A stretch of 64,000 bases of DNA from an uncultured Solirubrobacterales bacterium (GCA_963825535.1 CAWGTP010000006.1:183507-247506); one strand, 5' to 3'. Positions 37,871-46,615 are shown, counted from the stretch's first letter. Translations and numbers: made by a program. The notes: a model not told the origin generated them from the sequence alone.

Positions 37871-38547
37871 ACGGCCGGCTCGGGCGCGCGGCCGCGCTGG
37901 GGCCGCTGGATGCCGAGCACCCTGACGAGCCCCCACGAGCCCAGCACGAGCAGGCCGCCGGTCAACCAGCCGGCGAGAACGTCGGTCGGGTAGTGCACGC
38001 CGAGGAAGACGCGTGACATGCCGACCGCGAGGACGATCACGCCACCAACGAGCCCGACCGCCACACGGACCCGGTCGCGGCTCGCGGCCCGGATCAGCAG
38101 GAAGGCGAGGGTCGCGTAGACCGCCATGCTCGTGGCCGAGTGACCGCTTGGAAAGCTGAATCCGCCGGCGTGTACGAGCTGGTCATCGGCACCGGGTCGC
38201 GGCCGCTCCACGACCTGCTTGATCACCTGGACTGTCAGCTGTGCGGCCACCACCGACAAGACGACCATCAGCACGCCGTGCCAGTGCCGCAGTAGGGCGA
38301 GCACCGCGGTCGCCGCGGCGGCGACCAGCAGCGCGATCTGGGTGCTGCCGACGGCCGAGACGAACAGCGCGGCGCCGGTTCCGGCCGTCAGGGCGGGCCG
38401 GTCTCGCAGTCCCTCGACGGCGAGGCTGTCCAGCCGCGGCAGGGTGACGGTGTGCGTCACGGCCATGCCGAGCACGGCGACCACCCCGGCCATCAACGCC
38501 AGCCACGGCAGGAACGACTTGTGGATGTAGCGATTCAGTGGAGGCAT
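37867..38547 (-). CDS. PAP2-family membrane phosphatase
   Basis: 226 aa with KQVVERPRP, FPSGHSATS and SRVFLGVHYPTDV. Convergent with the fusion gene; the two stop codons share the tetranucleotide CTAG. Confidence 0.88.
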   Translation of the reverse strand: MPPLNRYIHKSFLPWLALMAGVVAVLGMAVTHTVTLPRLDSLAVEGLRDRPALTAGTGAALFVSAVGSTQIALLVAAAATAVLALLRHWHGVLMVVLSVVAAQLTVQVIKQVVERPRPGADDQLVHAGGFSFPSGHSATSMAVYATLAFLLIRAASRDRVRVAVGLVGGVIVLAVGMSRVFLGVHYPTDVLAGWLTGGLLVLGSWGLVRVLGIQRPQRGRAPEPAV

Positions 38548-38663
38548 GGATGGGCGTGGCGCAGCCCTGCCAGCGAGTTCGGCGCCTGCGAAGCCTCACC
38601 TCTCTCGATACCCATGACGGCCACCGATCAACCACCGGTGCCGTCAACCACGGCAGAGTGCTA

Positions 38664-38734
38664 CTGGGGGACAGGGATTCGAACCCCGATTACCTGGACC
38701 AGAACCAGGCGTCTTGCCGTTAGACGATCCCCCA
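38664..38734 (-). tRNA. tRNA-Gln (anticodon CTG)
   Basis: Manual cloverleaf on the minus strand: acceptor TGGGGGA/TCCCCCA, D arm GTCT/AGAC, anticodon arm CCTGG-TTCTGGT-CCAGG, T arm CGGGG-TTCGAAT-CCCTG, discriminator G. Confidence 0.88.
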
Positions 38735-38799
38735 ATCGAGACCGGGACGATAGCGATTTCCGACCGAGCCCGATGGGAACGTATGTTCGTGACGGTGAC

Positions 38800-39474
38800 C
38801 TAGCCCGCGGCCGTGGCCCGGCCCGCGAATCGCTCGGTCACCGACTCCTCGATGCCGATGTCCAGCACCAGCAGGACCTCGTCGCCGGCCTGTACGACCG
38901 ACTCGCCGGTGGGCACGAAGCCGCCGCCGTCACGCAGGATCGAGATCACGAGGGCGCCCTGGGGCAGACCGAGGGACTGCACCGCGACGCCGTCGGCGGC
39001 GGACCCCTCGGCCACCTCCATCTCGATGATCTCCAGCCGCTCCTCCTTGAGGTCCAGCAGGTGCACGAGGCCGTACTTGGGAACCTCGTGTTCGATCAGG
39101 CGCATGATCAGGTCGGTGGCGGACACGGCGGGCTTGACGCCCAGTAGCTCGAAGTGCTGGAGGTTGCGCGGGTTGTTGCAGCGGGCGACCACGCGCTCGA
39201 CGCCGTACTTCTCCTTGGCCACCTGGCAGATCAGGATGTTGTCCTCGTCGTCGCCGGTTACGGCGATCACGAGGTCGGCGCGCTCGATGCCGGCGCGCTC
39301 CAGGATCCAGAGCTCGGTGCCGTCGCCGTACTGGATGTTGTGCTCGAGCTCCTCTTCGACCACCTCGTAGCGGCGGCGGCTGGCCTCGACGACCGTGACC
39401 TCGTTCTGCTTGTCGATCAGCTCGCGGGCCAGATTCCAGCCAACCTTGCCGGCGCCGACGATCAGGACGTACAT
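38800..39474 (-). CDS. trkA: TrkA/RCK protein with TrkA_N and TrkA_C domains
   Basis: 224 aa. MYVLIVGAGKVG (GxGxxG Rossmann), a C-terminal RCK_C-like segment (…GALVISILRDGGGFVPTGESVVQAGDEVLLV). The start shares one base with the upstream stop (TGATG). Confidence 0.88.
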   Translation of the reverse strand: MYVLIVGAGKVGWNLARELIDKQNEVTVVEASRRRYEVVEEELEHNIQYGDGTELWILERAGIERADLVIAVTGDDEDNILICQVAKEKYGVERVVARCNNPRNLQHFELLGVKPAVSATDLIMRLIEHEVPKYGLVHLLDLKEERLEIIEMEVAEGSAADGVAVQSLGLPQGALVISILRDGGGFVPTGESVVQAGDEVLLVLDIGIEESVTERFAGRATAAG

Positions 39475-39929
39475 CAGGCTCTCACCCCGCGGCGCTCGGG
39501 CTGGCCGCCGACGGCGCGCTCCAGCATCTCGATCGCGGTCTGGGTCGGGCAGATCGTCTGGAGGCCCTGCTCGGCGTACCACCTGGCGCGCCCGGGGTCG
39601 AGCACGCGCACCACGACCTTGGCGATCGAGAACCGGCGCTGGGCGATCTGGGCGATCACCAGGTTGGTGTTGTCGCCATCGGTGGAGGCCACGAACGCAT
39701 CGGCGTTCTCGATCCCCGCCGCGAGCAGCGCGTCGATCTCCAGCGCAGTGCCGACCGTGAACGAGCCACCGAGGTCCTCCCAGCTCTGCTCCTGGCCGCG
39801 GTTGAGCAGCGCGATCGCCTCGGGGTTCTCATCGAGCACCGACACCTCGTTGCCCGCGGACAGCATGGATTTGGCGACGGACGAGCCAACTCGGCCGCAG
39901 CCCACGATCAGGACGAACACTGCGCGCAC
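39474..39929 (-). CDS. TrkA_N-only RCK protein
   Basis: About 150 aa with FVLIVGCGRVG and no RCK_C domain. The start is uncertain: GTG 39929 or GTG 39920. Confidence 0.8.
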   Translation of the reverse strand: MRAVFVLIVGCGRVGSSVAKSMLSAGNEVSVLDENPEAIALLNRGQEQSWEDLGGSFTVGTALEIDALLAAGIENADAFVASTDGDNTNLVIAQIAQRRFSIAKVVVRVLDPGRARWYAEQGLQTICPTQTAIEMLERAVGGQPERRGVRA

Positions 39930-39948
39930 AATAGCGGCGCGGAGCCGG

Positions 39949-41895
39949 TCAGGACGCGGTCTGGGCGGGCGATGGCTCCGCCGCCGGCGCATCGGCGGGC
40001 GGCGCGGTCAAGATGACCTTGCACGGGGCCTTCTCGACCACGTAGCGCGTGGTATCGCCCGCGAACCGGTCCTCCGCGCTGGCCTTGCCGCCGAAGCGGG
40101 CGCCGCCGCGGGTACGGCTGGGAGGCTCGGCGGCCAGCACGATCGCCTCCACCCCGCGTCGCTTGGCCTCGGACACGATCGCCGCGCCGGCGGAGCGCCC
40201 GCGCACGGTGGCGGTGGCCACCTCGACACCCTCATACTCCTCGCCGACCTCTTTCGCCCGCGCCAGCGCCTCACGGCCGGCGGTGACCTTGTCCGGCGCC
40301 ACGCGGGCGTCGATCGGCAGCGACATCGGGATCTCGAACACGTACAGGGCCTCGAGCATCGCGCCGCCCTCCCCCTCGTCGGCCTCGTCTGCCGCCAGCC
40401 GCCCGGCCGTGCCCACGATGTCGTCGTCAAGCGCACCGCCGAAGACCGGGACCAGGATGCTGCCGTACGCGGCCTCGTGCCGGGCCTCCTTTAGCGCCGC
40501 CTCGGGGATCGTGAAGCGCTTGGTCAGCGGCTTGCCCTGGCTGCGGCGGTAGACCACGTACAGCCCCAGGCCGGCCAGCATCCAGATGCCACCGGCGATC
40601 CGGGCACCCTCGTGCAGCACCACGACCGTCACCCAGCCCGCGCTGCCCATCAGCGCGCCGAGCGCGGCCGGAAGCGGGATCGACCCGCCGCCGACCGGCA
40701 CGCTAAGCGGGATACGAAACGGACGCGCCCGGTCGGGCTCGCGGAAGCGCAGCACGATCACCGACAGATGCGCAATCGTGAACGCCAGCATCGCGCCGAA
40801 CGCGAAGATCCCGGCCAGGAAGTCGATGTCGTTCGAGAGCGCCAGGCCGAAGCCGATCACCGCCGCGAGCGCGATCGTCACGTAAGGCGTCGAGCGGCGG
40901 GCGTCGAGACGCGACAGCAGGCTGGGGATCTGGCGGTTGGTGCCCAGCGAGTACGCCAGCCTGCCGATGCCCAGCATCTGCCCGTTCACCGCCTGGACCA
41001 GGACCAGTGCGCCCACGAAGCCGACCACGTAGCGGGCCGCCTCGGCGAGCCCGGCCGGCTCGAACGCGGACACCACGCCCAGCACCGGCGCGTCGATGTA
41101 GCGCCCTCCGAGCGCGGTGCCGTCCTCGCCGGCCGGCACCGCCATCAGCGCGATCACCGACACCGCCACGTACAGGACCAGCACCGATGCGGCACCGACC
41201 AGGGCCACCCGGCGCAGGTCGGAGCGACGGACCTTTACATCGGCGGCAAGGCCCGAGGCGGCCTCGATGCCGGTGCACGCCACCGTGGCGATCACCATCG
41301 CGAACACCAGATCGTCCACCGCGGGCATCGAGCCGAGGTCGATCGAGTCGGTGATCAGCGCCAGATCGAACAGCTGGGCGGTGCCGACCACGAGGATCGT
41401 GGCGAACACCACCAGGCTGACGAGCGACAACCGCAGCACCACCTTGTAGCGCTGCGCCGAGACCCCCTGGAAGTTCATCCAGGCCACCCAGCCGATCGTG
41501 GCCGCCGAGATCAGGATGGCCACCGCCCCGTCGTCCGCCTCGCCCCAGAAGGCGCCGAGGTAGTGCGGCACGGCCACGGCGCCGATGGCCAGCACGATCA
41601 GGAAGTCCAGCAGGATCGCCCAGCCGGCCACGAAGCTCCACAGCTCGTTGAAGCCGTAGCGGGCCAGTGCCGCGGCGCCGCCGCGCTCGGGGTGGAGTGA
41701 GTTTCCCTCCACGTATGTGAGCATCGTCAGCACGAAGAACAGCGCGCCCACGGCGAACACGAGCGGAGTCAGGCCCTGGGCCTGGCCCGCCACCACTCCG
41801 AGGATGTAGTACAGCGACGAGCCCACGGCCGCCGCCGCGATCGCGAACAGCACCGGCTGGCCCAGTCCGCGCGCGATCCGCGTCTCGGTGTTCAC
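39949..41895 (-). CDS. APC-superfamily permease with C-terminal universal stress protein (USP) domain
   Basis: 648 aa from GTG 41895 (GTGA overlap with the upstream small ORF). 12-TM APC-type core, then a USP-like tail (ILVPVFGGALDDD…VATATVRGRSAGAAIVSEAKRRGVEAIVLAAE). Confidence 0.85.
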   Translation of the reverse strand: MNTETRIARGLGQPVLFAIAAAAVGSSLYYILGVVAGQAQGLTPLVFAVGALFFVLTMLTYVEGNSLHPERGGAAALARYGFNELWSFVAGWAILLDFLIVLAIGAVAVPHYLGAFWGEADDGAVAILISAATIGWVAWMNFQGVSAQRYKVVLRLSLVSLVVFATILVVGTAQLFDLALITDSIDLGSMPAVDDLVFAMVIATVACTGIEAASGLAADVKVRRSDLRRVALVGAASVLVLYVAVSVIALMAVPAGEDGTALGGRYIDAPVLGVVSAFEPAGLAEAARYVVGFVGALVLVQAVNGQMLGIGRLAYSLGTNRQIPSLLSRLDARRSTPYVTIALAAVIGFGLALSNDIDFLAGIFAFGAMLAFTIAHLSVIVLRFREPDRARPFRIPLSVPVGGGSIPLPAALGALMGSAGWVTVVVLHEGARIAGGIWMLAGLGLYVVYRRSQGKPLTKRFTIPEAALKEARHEAAYGSILVPVFGGALDDDIVGTAGRLAADEADEGEGGAMLEALYVFEIPMSLPIDARVAPDKVTAGREALARAKEVGEEYEGVEVATATVRGRSAGAAIVSEAKRRGVEAIVLAAEPPSRTRGGARFGGKASAEDRFAGDTTRYVVEKAPCKVILTAPPADAPAAEPSPAQTAS

Positions 41896-42089
41896 CGCGC
41901 TCTCCCCCGCGGCCACACCCCGGCCACGTAGAGGCGCCCCACCCCCGCCAGCACGAAGAGAACGCCGAGCACCACGCCGAGCGCCAGCGGGCCGCCGCCG
42001 CGGGCGAGCGTGCTGATGACCATCGCAATGCCGATCAGGCACACGGCGGCGCCGAGGACGCGGCCGGAATGCATCAGCGCGCGCTCCAT
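41892..42089 (-). CDS. 65-aa two-helix membrane protein, hypothetical
   Basis: MERALMHSGRVLGAAVCLIGIAMVISTLARGGGPLALGVVLGVLFVLAGVGRLYVAGVWPRGRAR. Its start shares a base with the upstream permease stop (TGATG) and its stop overlaps the downstream permease start (GTGA). Confidence 0.6.
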   Translation of the reverse strand: MERALMHSGRVLGAAVCLIGIAMVISTLARGGGPLALGVVLGVLFVLAGVGRLYVAGVWPRGRAR

Positions 42090-43984
42090 CAGGCGGTCGC
42101 CTTTGCCTTCTTGTCCTCGCGCATGCCTACCGACGAATCGATGATCACCCGGCAGGGCCGCTCCGCCAGCACGGTCTCGAGCGTACGCCCGAACAGCGAG
42201 CTGCCGGCCCGCTTGGCGGGCAGCGGCATGACGATCGCGCGGGCGTGGATCTCGCGTGCCTCGCTGACGATCCGCCGGCCGGCGCCGCCGGCGCGCACCT
42301 TCTCGTAGTGACCGGTGACCCGCCGGCCGCCCCTGACCCGCGCCTGGTCCACGGCCGCCTGGGCCTTGGCCTCGGCATCCGGCATCGTCGCGTCGATGGG
42401 CGCGTTCTGGGGCACGCTGATGGTCACCAGCACGTGGATCCCGCGCCGGCGCCTGGCCGCCAGGCGCACCGCCATCGCAATCGCCTCGCTGGAGTAGTTG
42501 CCGTCCTCGAAGGCCACGAGGATCGACTCGTACTCGACCTCGTGCTCCACGATCGGGTCGGGCGTGATGATCTTCTTGGTCTCGGTGGGCCTGAGGCCCA
42601 GATGGCGCCGGTACAGGAAGTAGACGGTCATGCCGAGCGCCAGCCACAAGCCGCCGAACACGAGCACCACGAAGTTGAGGAACGTGACAGCGATGAACGC
42701 GGCCAGCGTCCCGAGGCCGCCGAAGATGGCGAACAACGGCAGGTCGTGGCCTCCGACCTTGAGGTTGCCGGGGCCGCGGAACGGACGCTCGGCGTCGGGC
42801 TGCCTTATCCGCAGCGCGATCACCGAGGCGTGCGCGACGGTGAACGACAGCATCGCGCCGAACGCGTAGACCGTGCCCAGGAAGTCCGCCTGGCCGGGAA
42901 GCATCGTCAGGCAGGCGATGAACCCGAACACGCCGATCGCCACATACGGCGTGCGAAAGCGCGGGTGCAGCTGGCGCACCTTCTCGGGCAGCTGGCGGTA
43001 CTGGCCCATCGAGTAGCTCAGCCGCGACAGGCCGATCAGGCCCGCGTTCGTGGCCACCAGCAGGATCGTGGCGGCCAGCAGGCCAACGTATCCCTTCAGG
43101 AACGTCTCCGGCCCGGCGCTCAGGCCCAGGTTGGTGACCAGCCCGGTGATCGGGTCGCCGGCGAAGCCGCCCTCGGAGGCCGGCTCGCCGAGCGGCGTCG
43201 AGCCGTCCTTTACCGGCATCGCCGACAGGGCCACGGCGGGCAGCGTCAGCGAGATCGCCATGACCGCGGCCACCACCCGCTTCATCGCTGCCGGAATCGT
43301 CTCCGCCTGGTCACGCGCCTCCTCGGCCATGTTCGAGATCGTGTCGATTCCGGTGAAGGCGACCATCCCCACCGGGATCGCGATCAGGAAGTCGTTCAGC
43401 TTCGGCGAGACGCCGAAGTCGACGTTGTCGACGAGCGTCTCGGGCGAGAGCACGAGCACCGCGCCCAGCAGCACGATCGCGACCTGGGTGACCAGGTCCA
43501 TGATCGCCAGGAAGATGTTCAGGCGGGCGGCCTCCTGGACGCCGACGACGTTGACGGCGCCGAGCACCACGACAACCGTGATGCCAAGGATCACGTCCCC
43601 GGGGCTGGTCTTCAGCGGCTCCCAGAACACGCCTAGGTAGTGCGGCAGGAAGAACGCCGAGATGGCGACCGTGATGATGTAGTTGAGCATCTGGCCCCAC
43701 GCGGTGACCGCGGAGACGGTCTCGTTGAAGGCGTGGCGCGCGAACGAGGACGAGCCGCCGGCCTCGGCGTACATCGTGGTCGCCTCGGTGTAGGTGATCG
43801 CCGTGAGCACGAAGATCACGCCGGCGATCAGGAAGACCACCGGCGTCATGCCCAGCGCGAACACCGCCACCAGGCCGAGCGCGTAGTAGATCGAGCTGCC
43901 GACGTTGCCGTAGGCGGTGCTGAAGAGCGCTCCCGTGCCGAGCACGCGCTCCAGCCCTTGGTTCTTGGGGCGGTACTCGGCCAT
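42089..43984 (-). CDS. APC-superfamily permease with C-terminal USP domain (paralog of 39949-41895)
   Basis: 631 aa. APC core (GTGALFSTAYGNVGSSIYYALG…) plus a USP-like tail (ILVAFEDGNYSSEAIAMAVRLAA…VRAGGAGRRIVSEAREIHARAIVMP). Confidence 0.87.
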   Translation of the reverse strand: MAEYRPKNQGLERVLGTGALFSTAYGNVGSSIYYALGLVAVFALGMTPVVFLIAGVIFVLTAITYTEATTMYAEAGGSSSFARHAFNETVSAVTAWGQMLNYIITVAISAFFLPHYLGVFWEPLKTSPGDVILGITVVVVLGAVNVVGVQEAARLNIFLAIMDLVTQVAIVLLGAVLVLSPETLVDNVDFGVSPKLNDFLIAIPVGMVAFTGIDTISNMAEEARDQAETIPAAMKRVVAAVMAISLTLPAVALSAMPVKDGSTPLGEPASEGGFAGDPITGLVTNLGLSAGPETFLKGYVGLLAATILLVATNAGLIGLSRLSYSMGQYRQLPEKVRQLHPRFRTPYVAIGVFGFIACLTMLPGQADFLGTVYAFGAMLSFTVAHASVIALRIRQPDAERPFRGPGNLKVGGHDLPLFAIFGGLGTLAAFIAVTFLNFVVLVFGGLWLALGMTVYFLYRRHLGLRPTETKKIITPDPIVEHEVEYESILVAFEDGNYSSEAIAMAVRLAARRRRGIHVLVTISVPQNAPIDATMPDAEAKAQAAVDQARVRGGRRVTGHYEKVRAGGAGRRIVSEAREIHARAIVMPLPAKRAGSSLFGRTLETVLAERPCRVIIDSSVGMREDKKAKATA

Positions 43985-44343
43985 AGCCGAGCGAGAAAGC
44001 TACTCCTGTACGGCCGGCTGGGTAGGAGGCGGGTCCGTTACCGCGCTGTCACGTTTGTGGCGTCGGTGTGACCAAACCGCCGCCGGTACCGGGCGCCGCC
44101 AACCGTGCGGCTCTACTTACGTACCGTGGAGGTACGTTTCCAGAGCCACACTGGCCGGGCGCGTAACGGTCGAGCGACAAACCCAACGACCACGTGACAG
44201 CGACGCCAAGCGCGGCCCCAGCGGCCGTCCGCCCACCCAGCCGCAAACACCAACCCACGGCAAGCCTCTAGGCGCAGTCGCGGCCGAGCCCACCAGCGCA
44301 CTCAACCGTTGCCGGACCGTTACCGCCGGACCTTGTCCTGTAA

Positions 44344-44508
44344 CCCCGGCCCGCCCATGCTTGGTGGTTCCTCGCCGGCTGGGATGACGAGGACGCCAGC
44401 GCCATCAAGAAGGCAATCCTCACGGCCAATGAGGAGTCCAGCAAGCCGGACTACTTCGAGCGCCTTCAGGCCCAGGCGTCAGGGACCGGCGGTAAGGCCG
44501 GTCCCTGA
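44344..44508 (+). other. coding-like open frame without a start codon (gene remnant or frameshifted small gene)
   Basis: The 54-codon frame after TAA 44341-44343 reads …AWWFLAGWDDEDASAIKKAILTANEESSKPDYFERLQAQASGTGGKAGP*. About 83% GC3 by hand count. No ATG/GTG/TTG in frame. The stop lies inside the terminator hairpin. Confidence 0.35.
44479..44508. terminator. 12-bp GC-rich hairpin, bidirectional terminator candidate downstream of hppA
   Basis: TCAGGGACCGGC-GGTAAG-GCCGGTCCCTGA, read directly. Lies about 23 nt after the hppA stop on the minus strand. Confidence 0.6.
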
Positions 44509-44530
44509 GCGCGCTAGCTGATGCTGATGC

Positions 44531-46615
44531 TCAGACCAGGAACGGGATGATCAGGATCGCCACGATGTTGGCCACCTTGATCATCGGGTTGATCGCCGGG
44601 CCGGCGGTGTCCTTGTAGGGGTCGCCGACGGTGTCGCCCGTGATCGAGGCCTCGTGCGCCTCGGAGCCCTTGCCGCCGAACTCGCCGTCCTCGATCAGCT
44701 TCTTGGCGTTGTCCCACGCGCCGCCACCGGCGGTCATGGAGACGGCGGTGAAGAAGCCGACGATGATCACGCCGATCAGCAGGCCGCCGAGCGCCTGGTA
44801 GGACAGCAGGCCGACGACGACGGTGATCACGATCGGGATCAGCGCGGGAAGGATCATCTCCTTCTGGGCCGCCGCGGTCACGATGGCCACCGCGCCGCGG
44901 TAGTCGGGCTCCTCGGTGCGGTCCATGATCCCCGGCTTCTCCTTGAACTGGCGCCGGACCTCGTCCACCACCAGTCCGCCCGCGCGGCCGACCGACTCGA
45001 TCGAAAGCGCGACGAACAGGAACACCATCATGCCGCCGACCAGCAGGCCAACGAGCACCTCGGGCTGCGAGATGTCGAACCCCTGGAGGGTCACGCCCTC
45101 CTTGGCCGCCTCCTCGCGCAGCTCCTCCACGAACGCTGCGAACAGCACGAGCGCGGCGAGCACGGCGGACCCGATCGCGTAGCCCTTGGTCACGGCCTTG
45201 GTGGTGTTGCCGACCGCGTCCAGCGGGTCGGTCACGTTGCGGACCTCCTCGGGCAGCTCCGCCATCTCGGCGATCCCGCCGGCGTTGTCGGTGATCGGCC
45301 CGAAGGCATCGAGGGCCACGATCAGCCCGGTCAGCGACAGCTGCGCCATGACGGCGACGCCGATGCCGTAGATGCCGGCAAGCTCGTTGGCCGCCAGGAT
45401 GCCCAGCGCCAGCACGATCGCGGGAGCGGCCGTGGACTGGAAGCCCTGCGCCAGGCCCTGGATGATGTTGGTCGCATGACCGGTCTGCGAGGCACGCGCG
45501 GTGCTCTTGACCGGGTTGAAGCGGGTGGACGTGTAGTAGTCGGTGATCACGAACAGGAACGCCGTGATGGCGATTCCGATCAGGGAGCAGAGCCAGAAGT
45601 CGAAGCCGCTGGCCACACCGCCGCCGCCGGTGATCAGCGTGGACGCGCCCTCCTTGAAGGACAGGTCGTCCATCAGCCACAGCGAGATCGGCAGGAACGC
45701 GATCGCGGCGATCACGCCCGAGACGACCAGGCCCTGGTAGAGCGCACGCTCGACGTTGCCGGTCGCGCTCTTGACGGCGAACGTGCCGATGATCGAGGCG
45801 ATGATCGACACGCCGCCGATGACCAGCGGGTAGACGCCGACGGCGCCGATGTTGTCGAAGGTCAGGACGCCAAGCAGCATCACCGCGACTGCCGTCACGG
45901 CGTAGGTCTCGAACAGGTCGGCCGCCATTCCGGCGCAGTCGCCGACGTTGTCGCCGACGTTGTCGGCGATGACCGCCGGGTTACGCGGGTCGTCCTCGGG
46001 GATGCCGGCCTCGATCTTGCCGACGACGTCGGCGCCCACGTCGGCCGCCTTGGTGAAGATGCCGCCGCCAAGCCGGGCGAACACGGAGATCAGCGAGCCA
46101 CCGAAGCCGAGGCCGACCAGCGCGTCGATGGCCTCCTTCTCCTCGGTGCCCGTCGCCAGCAGCACGCCGTAGTAGCCCGCCACGCCAAGGAGCGCGAGGC
46201 CGGCGACCAGCATGCCCGTGATGGCGCCGCCCTTGAAGGCCACCTCGAGCGCCGGGGCGACGCCGCCGCGTGCGGTCTCGGCCACGCGGCAGTTGGCCCG
46301 CACCGACACGTTCATGCCGATGAAGCCGGCCGCGCCCGAGAAGGCGCCGCCGATCACGAAGCCGACGGCAGTGCGCAGGTCGAGCGCGATCGCCAGGATG
46401 ATCGCGAGCACGATCGCGACCACGCCGATGATCTGGTACTGGCGTGTCAGGTAGGCGCTTGCGCCCTCCTGGACGGCCTTGGAGATGCGCTGCATCTCAT
46501 CGTTGCCCGGCGACTTGGCCAGAAGCCAGCGCGAGGTGGTGTATCCGTAAACGACGGCAGCACCGGCGCAGACGAGCGCGATGATGATCCCGTAGTCGGT
46601 CAGAAAGTCGGTCAA
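44531..46615 (-). CDS. hppA: membrane-bound H+-translocating pyrophosphatase, K+-independent type
   Basis: 694 aa, about 16 TM. Motifs [21 protein letters not shown] and [19 protein letters not shown] start with GGAGG 10 nt upstream. Confidence 0.93.

Follow-up and report, generated by a model that had tools for sequence, protein, structure and literature searches.

Permeases of the APC superfamily with USP tails, encoded with a TrkA pair in Solirubrobacterales: a candidate RCK-regulated cation-uptake module

Which membrane protein does a TrkA pair serve where no TrkH is encoded? RCK/TrkA rings are the textbook gates of TrkH/KtrB pores, and many Actinomycetota, the tuberculosis bacillus included, possess a TrkA pair that is called a 'Trk system' without having TrkH. 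The question is raised by a chain of five genes at positions 38800-43984, minus strand, of a 64,000-nucleotide (nt) stretch (referred to in its whole length as the window) from an uncultured Solirubrobacterales bacterium of the family Thermoleophilaceae (GCA_963825535.1, CAWGTP010000006.1:183507-247506), whose source assembly comprises 3.16 Mb in 6 contigs and is 93.7% complete. The chain encodes two APC-type permeases with universal stress protein (USP) tails, a micro-protein and two RCK proteins. Comparative analysis suggests that these five genes could well form one regulated cation-uptake system, probably for K+, that would replace KimA or TrkH, a tentative reading of somewhat less than even confidence.

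The initial annotation had described a five-gene minus-strand chain, and all five open reading frames (ORFs) were found in place, with every described detail right. The first gene (42089-43984) encodes permease 1, of 631 amino acids (aa), with matches to PF13520 (8.8e-33), PF00324 and the USP family PF00582 (2e-11). It is followed by a two-helix membrane micro-protein of 65 aa (41892-42089), with no match in Pfam or NCBIfam, and by permease 2 (39949-41895), which has a GTG start, 648 aa and matches to PF13520 (3.4e-34) and PF00582 (2.4e-08). The fourth gene (39474-39929) encodes a TM1088A-like RCK protein of 151 aa that has TrkA_N (PF02254, 1.6e-20) without TrkA_C, and the last (38800-39474) a TM1088B/CeoC-like RCK protein of 224 aa with both TrkA_N (PF02254, 2.1e-29) and TrkA_C (PF02080, 3e-11). 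The genes are translationally coupled. As read directly in the sequence, permease 1 and the micro-protein overlap by 1 nt (TGATG), the micro-protein and permease 2 by 4 nt (GTGA), and the two RCK genes again by 1 nt (TGATG); 19 nt separate permease 2 from the TrkA_N gene, counted to the first GTG of the latter. These values agree with the overlaps of 1-4 nt and the single gap of about 20 nt reported at the outset.

When each GTDB species, represented by one genome, was scanned for the invariant motif in transmembrane helix 1 (TM1) of permease 1, at least 596 species had it, the scan being saturated by this order; the best 80 were used for locus comparison. These 80 related loci were all from Solirubrobacterales, Conexibacter and Baekduia among them; 66 had enough downstream sequence to be informative, and 60 were tandem-permease loci. 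The order permease 1, permease 2, TrkA_N, TrkA_N+C was found in 51/66 informative loci (77%), with median estimated gaps of 7 nt between permease 2 and the TrkA_N gene and 4 nt between the two RCK genes. Given this recurrence, the arrangement is not due to chance. The chain proteins were 46-74% identical across species loci, and the chain also occurred in other families of the class. A plain homologue search with permease 1 gave relatives at least 72% identical only, and so supplied names (Thermoleophilaceae and Solirubrobacterales) rather than diversity. The micro-protein is a real gene, given that 59 of the 60 tandem loci have a two-helix ORF between the permeases, its GGG turn and GxGR(L/I) motif conserved; it is probably an accessory subunit.

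The permease pair was present in 20/21 relatives and in 40/41 genomes of the order that were at least 90% complete. Across a 301-genome sample of the phylum, searched with permease 1 at E<=1e-50, matches were limited to its own class, plus one match that lacked the tail. Identities to the window proteins had medians of 70% (TrkA_N+C), 68% (TrkA_N), 62% (permease 1) and 52% (permease 2). The duplication of the permeases is old, because the two are only about 33-35% identical and both paralogues are found in other families of the class. Permease 2 is the fastest-evolving member, with few invariant site residues and most of the conserved ones lost; such divergence fits a regulatory or structural partner subunit, as far as sequence can tell. 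In the class sample, 18 genomes had both the permease and the short TrkA orthologue, 1 had TrkA without the permease, 5 lacked the two, and 0 had the permease without TrkA, counts that are descriptive and not a test because the genomes are related.

The two RCK proteins of the window are the only genuine TrkA_N proteins in the genome. The TrkA_N-only protein, in which the dinucleotide-fold motif GCGRVG...LDE can be read, had T. maritima TM1088A as its best PDB match (3L4B_A, E=8.7e-22, residues 3-143 against 7-140). PDB searches with the TrkA_N+C protein gave Vibrio TrkA (4G65/4J9U) at 3e-36 and TM1088B (3L4B_C) at 1.8e-27, the latter aligned over residues 1-219 against 1-218. By these full-length alignments, each member of the pair has its counterpart in the Thermotoga ring. 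TM1088A and TM1088B, its two kinds of subunit, assemble into a gating octamer whose partner is the TrkH homologue TM1089, and homologues of the ring occur in Actinobacteria and M. tuberculosis (PMC4380455).

A partner of the TM1089 type was searched for in the genome. The lack of a TrkH/KtrB subunit noted at the locus extends from the window to the whole 3.16-Mb assembly, in which no PF02386 match was found and tblastn with the TrkH ORFs of relatives likewise gave nothing; on this basis, a TrkH elsewhere in the genome was ruled out as the true RCK partner. Without TrkH, the subunit that defines such systems, the module does not qualify as a Trk system proper. Family searches and tblastn found no KdpA, Kup, KimA, P2-type ATPase or Ion_trans channel in the source genome either. 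Its single Ion_trans_2 ORF, outside the window (L033 1471-2298, minus strand; G000:C3), reads TLTSTGLSD instead of TVGYG at the filter position. With this non-canonical filter, and with neither an Ion_trans nor an RCK-fused channel in the genome, a canonical K+ channel was rejected as partner. Among the 5-6 CPA antiporters that the genome also encodes, one has a TrkA_C domain of its own. A CPA-family cation/proton antiporter at G000:C6:309980-311374, outside the window, appears to bear TrkA_C at its C-terminus; the CPA antiporter with TrkA_C is likely a K+ efflux route.

The survey of importers was extended to 41 genomes of the order, each at least 90% complete. KdpA was found in 12 of them, Kup in 10 (plus one sub-cut-off match in G262), KimA in 3, a full TrkH in 1 and a TrkH fragment in 1. 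TrkH, KdpA, Kup and KimA were all missing from 23/41 genomes, and all 23 have the permease pair; among them are the closed genomes G328 and G013, and also G316 apart from its TrkH fragment. The sole genome without the permease pair, G014, has two Kup genes and one KimA. In G316, a closed genome of the same genus, an ORF of 173 aa (G316:C1:2367822-2368289) matches the last third of TrkH only and, judged from its sequence, looks like the remnant of a lost trkH. The source genome and 23 of the 41 genomes of the order thus have none of the known importers searched for, and all have the permease pair, which is one reason for favouring K+ or cation uptake as the role of the module.

A further reason comes from the genes beside TrkA pairs in other Actinomycetota. 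Of the 301 genomes sampled, 257 had a TrkA_N+C homologue and 166 had TrkH, and whole families possess TrkA without TrkH. Neighbourhoods were compared at 19 TrkA loci from TrkH-less genomes of other families. A KimA homologue (PDB 6S3K, E=2.8e-121) adjoined the TrkA pair in 13/19 loci, in many of them with a second paralogue. In the other 6/19 the slot was filled by P2-type cation ATPases of ~935 aa, either one or two per locus, so that the pair is not confined to APC neighbours. The six ATPase loci (L022, L023, L026, L027, L029, L030) come from five other families. KimA and the trkA pair were divergent, on opposite strands, in 5/5 closed genomes of four families. More generally, at loci that join KimA to the TrkA pair (L134, L135, L013-L021, L024, L025, L028, L031) the two are usually divergent and ~100-450 bp apart. 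That KimA fills the same TrkA-side slot in 13/19 TrkH-less loci and in all five closed genomes favours the reading of the Solirubrobacterales module as an uptake system for K+ or another cation.

The initial annotation had also suggested that mycobacterial ceoB/ceoC sit beside an APC-type membrane protein. The layout could be followed in the closed genome G155, whose TrkA shares 86-89% identity with proteins assigned by name to Mycobacterium or Mycolicibacterium. A TrkA pair does lie there beside an APC-superfamily protein (L134, G155:C1:4795000-4801000); this neighbour is KimA-type over its full length (6S3K, E=1.2e-109) and was therefore rejected as an APC-USP orthologue. The suggested synteny holds for the superfamily and not for the family, and the link to the window is one of same slot and same superfamily. 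In the wider sense, it was upheld that across Actinomycetota a short TrkA pair is conserved alongside a membrane protein of the APC superfamily. In M. tuberculosis, CeoB/CeoC are Rv2691/Rv2692, with Rv2690c as their neighbour. In those parts of the M. tuberculosis CeoBC literature that were searched by term, there is no mention of TrkH or Rv2690c and the membrane partner goes unnamed. KimA together with ceoB appeared in no relevant paper of the literature search, and no paper describing the pairing of APC-USP with an RCK pair, or of KimA with a TrkA pair, was found.

Where TrkH is present, it has an RCK protein of its own. All four TrkH-bearing loci, including that of G230, had a canonical double-RCK TrkA of 435-439 aa alongside. 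TrkH therefore has no need of the short pair, which represents a separate system. At G230:C9:78000-92000 (L032 / L009), TrkH and its double-RCK TrkA are convergent and lie 1.8 kb after an APC-USP/TrkA cluster.

The permeases themselves were compared with KimA and with other APC-fold carriers. True KimA homologues score 1e-109 to 1e-121 against KimA, and the families of permease 1 and KimA proved related only in profile-profile comparison, with an hhalign probability of 98.9% and ~20% identity. The TM1 motif of permease 1, AYGNVGSSIYYALG, was invariant in 14 orthologues. Functional residues of KimA were taken from PMC6994465. In a low-identity alignment that is suggestive only, KimA Y43, T230, E233 and Y377 align to Y25, T211, D214 and Y373 of permease 1. 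Y25, T211 and Y373 were invariant in the 14 orthologues, and D214 alternates with Glu, which is the family consensus. In TM5 of permease 1, Asp163 is invariant as well. SLC7 relatives have V, F/N and S at the Y43, E233 and Y377 positions, and the retention in permease 1 of equivalents that SLC7 relatives lack is a further point in favour of cation uptake. In permease 2, the Asp aligned to KimA D117 is conserved and is the sole KimA site residue kept.

The AlphaFold2 model of permease 1 (predicted local distance difference test score 75.8) comprises a 12-helix APC/LeuT-fold domain and a C-terminal USP domain. Foldseek gave full-length matches only to KimA (8B70, 635 columns, 2.9e-14) and to NCC, NKCC1 and KCC (~1e-11), and this restriction of the whole-length matches to KimA and the NCC/NKCC/KCC carriers favours the cation reading as well. 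The USP domain spans residues 485-615 of permease 1, and PF00582 scored 45.0 bits in permease 1 and 35.1 bits in permease 2 against a cut-off of 24. Read by eye, the USP ATP motif G-2x-G-9x-G(S/T) is not evident in permease 1, where the consensus is R-x2-G-x3-F-G-R-T with a loop that is too short; permease 2 has G-x9-G-D-T, poorly conserved. The nucleotide binding that the initial annotation ascribed to the USP domains is putative.

From this pattern we infer a physical complex, in which the APC-USP paralogues would make up a heterodimeric LeuT-fold carrier, permease 1 being the working subunit and permease 2 its diverged partner, and the 65-aa hairpin would be an accessory membrane subunit. 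The TrkA_N-only and TrkA_N+C proteins would assemble a TM1088A/B-type RCK ring beneath the carrier and couple transport to nucleotide status (ATP/ADP/NAD(H)) and K+ status. As a diadenylate cyclase domain is encoded in the genome, the ring might also sense c-di-AMP through its RCK_C domain. In Solirubrobacterales, the module takes the trkA-side slot that KimA-type symporters hold in most other TrkH-less Actinomycetota.

Two other explanations have to be weighed against such a system. The APC-USP pair might carry an amino acid, a polyamine or another organic solute (e.g., a counter-ion or osmolyte such as glutamate), with the RCK ring and USP domains tuning the carrier to K+, energy or osmotic status and with K+ entering by a different, unrecognised route. 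This is rather unlikely, although several observations that support it also weigh directly against K+ uptake by the permeases, one of them being that the membrane domain is nearest to SLC7/APC amino-acid carriers in both sequence and fold. The two permeases reach 114.3 and 118.9 bits with AA_permease_2, well above the Pfam gathering cut-off of 27. The best PDB sequence matches of permease 1 are the SLC7-type xCT, b0,+AT, BasC and GkApcT, and KimA was not among its phmmer PDB matches at E<=0.01. With the membrane domain, Foldseek likewise ranked BasC first and matched other SLC7 proteins too. The TM1 stretch VGSS(I/L)YY aligns to the SLC7 substrate loop IGSGIF, the invariant G29-S30-S31 falling on G-S-G of b0,+AT; Ser at the third position of this loop is also found in the amino-acid carrier ApcT. 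Asp36, the essential K+-binding residue of KimA, is missing, being aligned to G18 of permease 1 at a variable position, and the equivalents of KimA T121 and S125 are uninformative since they occur in xCT as well. RCK_C domains, moreover, are also fused to carriers of solutes other than K+. The best NCBIfam relatives are amino-acid, ethanolamine and BcaP families, but all lie far below their cut-offs; TIGR00909, the best match, scored 112 bits against 556.8, and for every substrate family the score stayed below a quarter of the cut-off. An organic substrate would leave the 23 importer-less genomes of the order without any K+ importer, although here it counts against the cation reading that the absence of importers comes from family searches in genomes that are mostly metagenome-assembled. 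Every neighbour of the module is a transporter of inorganic cations (hppA, KimA, P2-type ATPase), and the TrkA-side slot in other lineages is occupied by K+ importers of a proven type; both argue against an organic solute.

An unlikely explanation, and the less probable of the two, is that the adjacency reflects co-expression in a cation-homeostasis gene island, in which the permeases are independent of the TrkA pair and the latter acts on the H+-pyrophosphatase HppA, a CPA antiporter or a non-canonical channel, or serves as a soluble sensor. The arrangement is in fact not universal, which tells against a single five-gene system. About 9/66 informative loci are ordered micro-protein, permease 2, permease 1 without TrkA. 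In three relatives the TrkA pair adjoins hppA with no permease alongside: the permeases are located elsewhere in G019 and G196, and G014 keeps the TrkA pair without any APC-USP gene. The hppA-trkA adjacency hence outlasts the permeases, and it recurs in other classes: at 12/19 loci of other actinobacterial families, no more than a few kb lie between hppA and the TrkA pair. In three genomes that were checked (G022, G039, G288), the pair adjoins P2-type ATPases in the absence of TrkH, KimA and APC-USP, and adjacency need therefore not mean physical partnership. The gap of 19 nt, without overlap, between permease 2 and the TrkA_N gene, and the CPA antiporters of the genome, one of which has a TrkA_C domain, would also suit independent functions. 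Since the TrkA pair is usually but not always attached, the tightest unit consists of permease 1, the hairpin and permease 2. Against a mere gene island stand the order of permeases and TrkA genes, which 77% of species loci keep (median estimated gap 7 nt), and the class-wide co-occurrence of 18 genomes with both against 0 with the permease only. Regulation by an RCK protein is not known for any H+-pyrophosphatase, and M. tuberculosis, which is not known to have such an enzyme, keeps CeoBC.

To return to the RCK-regulated uptake of a cation, what this operon and the related loci point to as the membrane partner of the TrkH-less TrkA pair are carriers of the APC superfamily, the neighbour being KimA-type in mycobacteria, streptomycete-sized genomes and others and a distinct USP-tailed permease pair in Solirubrobacterales. 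A more specific proposal, made with somewhat greater reserve than the reading as one cation-uptake system, is that the heterodimer of APC-USP permeases may, together with its 65-aa hairpin and an RCK ring of TM1088 type, represent a new family of K+ importers, a non-orthologous substitute for KimA/TrkH and the sole K+ uptake in most Solirubrobacterales and that, by extension, the partner of CeoBC-type TrkA proteins may be an APC-superfamily carrier and not an SKT pore. If the permease pair does move K+, this would explain K+ uptake in a widespread soil order without a known importer.

Several features around the module and its relatives are recorded in addition. The operon is preceded by a spacer of 546 nt (43985-44530), the presumed promoter or operator site, in which no Rfam family at E<=1 and no match to a sigma-70-like promoter or a terminator was found. 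An Rfam search for a leader RNA or riboswitch over 38000-45000 at E<=1 gave only a downstream tRNA gene (38664-38734, minus strand; RF00005, 57.4 bits), which marks the downstream end of the operon. Terminator-like matches numbered 2, both inside permease 2, and were discarded, being no more numerous than in shuffled sequences. Upstream of the spacer lies hppA, for the H+-translocating pyrophosphatase (44531-46615, minus strand; PF03030, 2e-255), a conserved neighbour found upstream of permease 1 in 50/80 related loci. It recurs beside the short TrkA pair across classes, even at loci without the permease pair (joint loci: the window, L013, L016-L023, L028, L029, L031, L044, L045, L047). Some of the loci with the order hairpin, permease 2, permease 1 and no TrkA have a KimA or P2-type ATPase gene upstream. 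In this alternative arrangement (L043 12023-14272; L093, L130, L132), a KimA-like gene on the same strand immediately precedes the permease genes, and a further copy resembling permease 1 is often found ~2 kb downstream.

Comparison with known systems places the module between several of them. As in the Thermotoga TM1088A/TM1088B ring, RCK subunits of the N-only (~140-150 aa) and N+C (~220 aa) kinds are encoded side by side, but the Thermotoga ring serves a TrkH pore, whereas the co-operonic membrane proteins here are APC-fold carriers with USP tails and a micro-protein. The module shares with Trk/Ktr systems the cytoplasmic proteins with TrkA_N (both) and TrkA_C (the second), and differs in that the SKT-type subunit TrkH/TrkG/KtrB (PF02386) is missing from the genome. 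RCK control of secondary cation carriers, not of SKT pores, has precedents in KhtT-KhtU, KefC and Streptomyces CpeA-CpeB; KefC was among the matches in the searches, but these carriers are CPA2 antiporters and not APC-fold proteins. CeoB/CeoC offer a similar layout, namely a short TrkA pair in a TrkH-less actinobacterium beside an APC-superfamily membrane protein, as verified in G155. The mycobacterial-like locus differs in that both RCK proteins are N+C and the membrane gene is divergent, encoding a KimA homologue without a Pfam USP match.

Among the carriers, SLC7/APC proteins (BasC, GkApcT, xCT, b0,+AT, LAT1) share the TM1 G-S-x loop and the TM6 AEE...P motif, but, unlike the window proteins, they have no USP tail, RCK partners or paralogue pairing. 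SLC12 carriers (NKCC1, NCC, KCC) have, besides their APC fold, a large regulatory domain of alpha/beta type at the C-terminus; they are dimeric, move K+/Na+ by means of neutral ligands only, and are 11-14% identical to permease 1. The tail found in one cation-chloride cotransporter from a prokaryote (PDB 3G40) has the same fold as the KimA tail (PMC6994465). KimA, the K+/H+ symporter of the KUP family from B. subtilis (6S3K, 8B70), resembles the permeases in having a LeuT/APC fold followed by a cytoplasmic alpha/beta domain of the HUP class at the C-terminus, and it is active as a dimer. It needs no RCK partner, however, and is inhibited directly by c-di-AMP; with Asp36 missing and homology at the profile level only, the permeases are, on sequence criteria, not members of the KimA family. 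On the cation-uptake reading, the module is an RCK-regulated cation carrier of a new variety, neither a Trk system nor a member of the KimA family.

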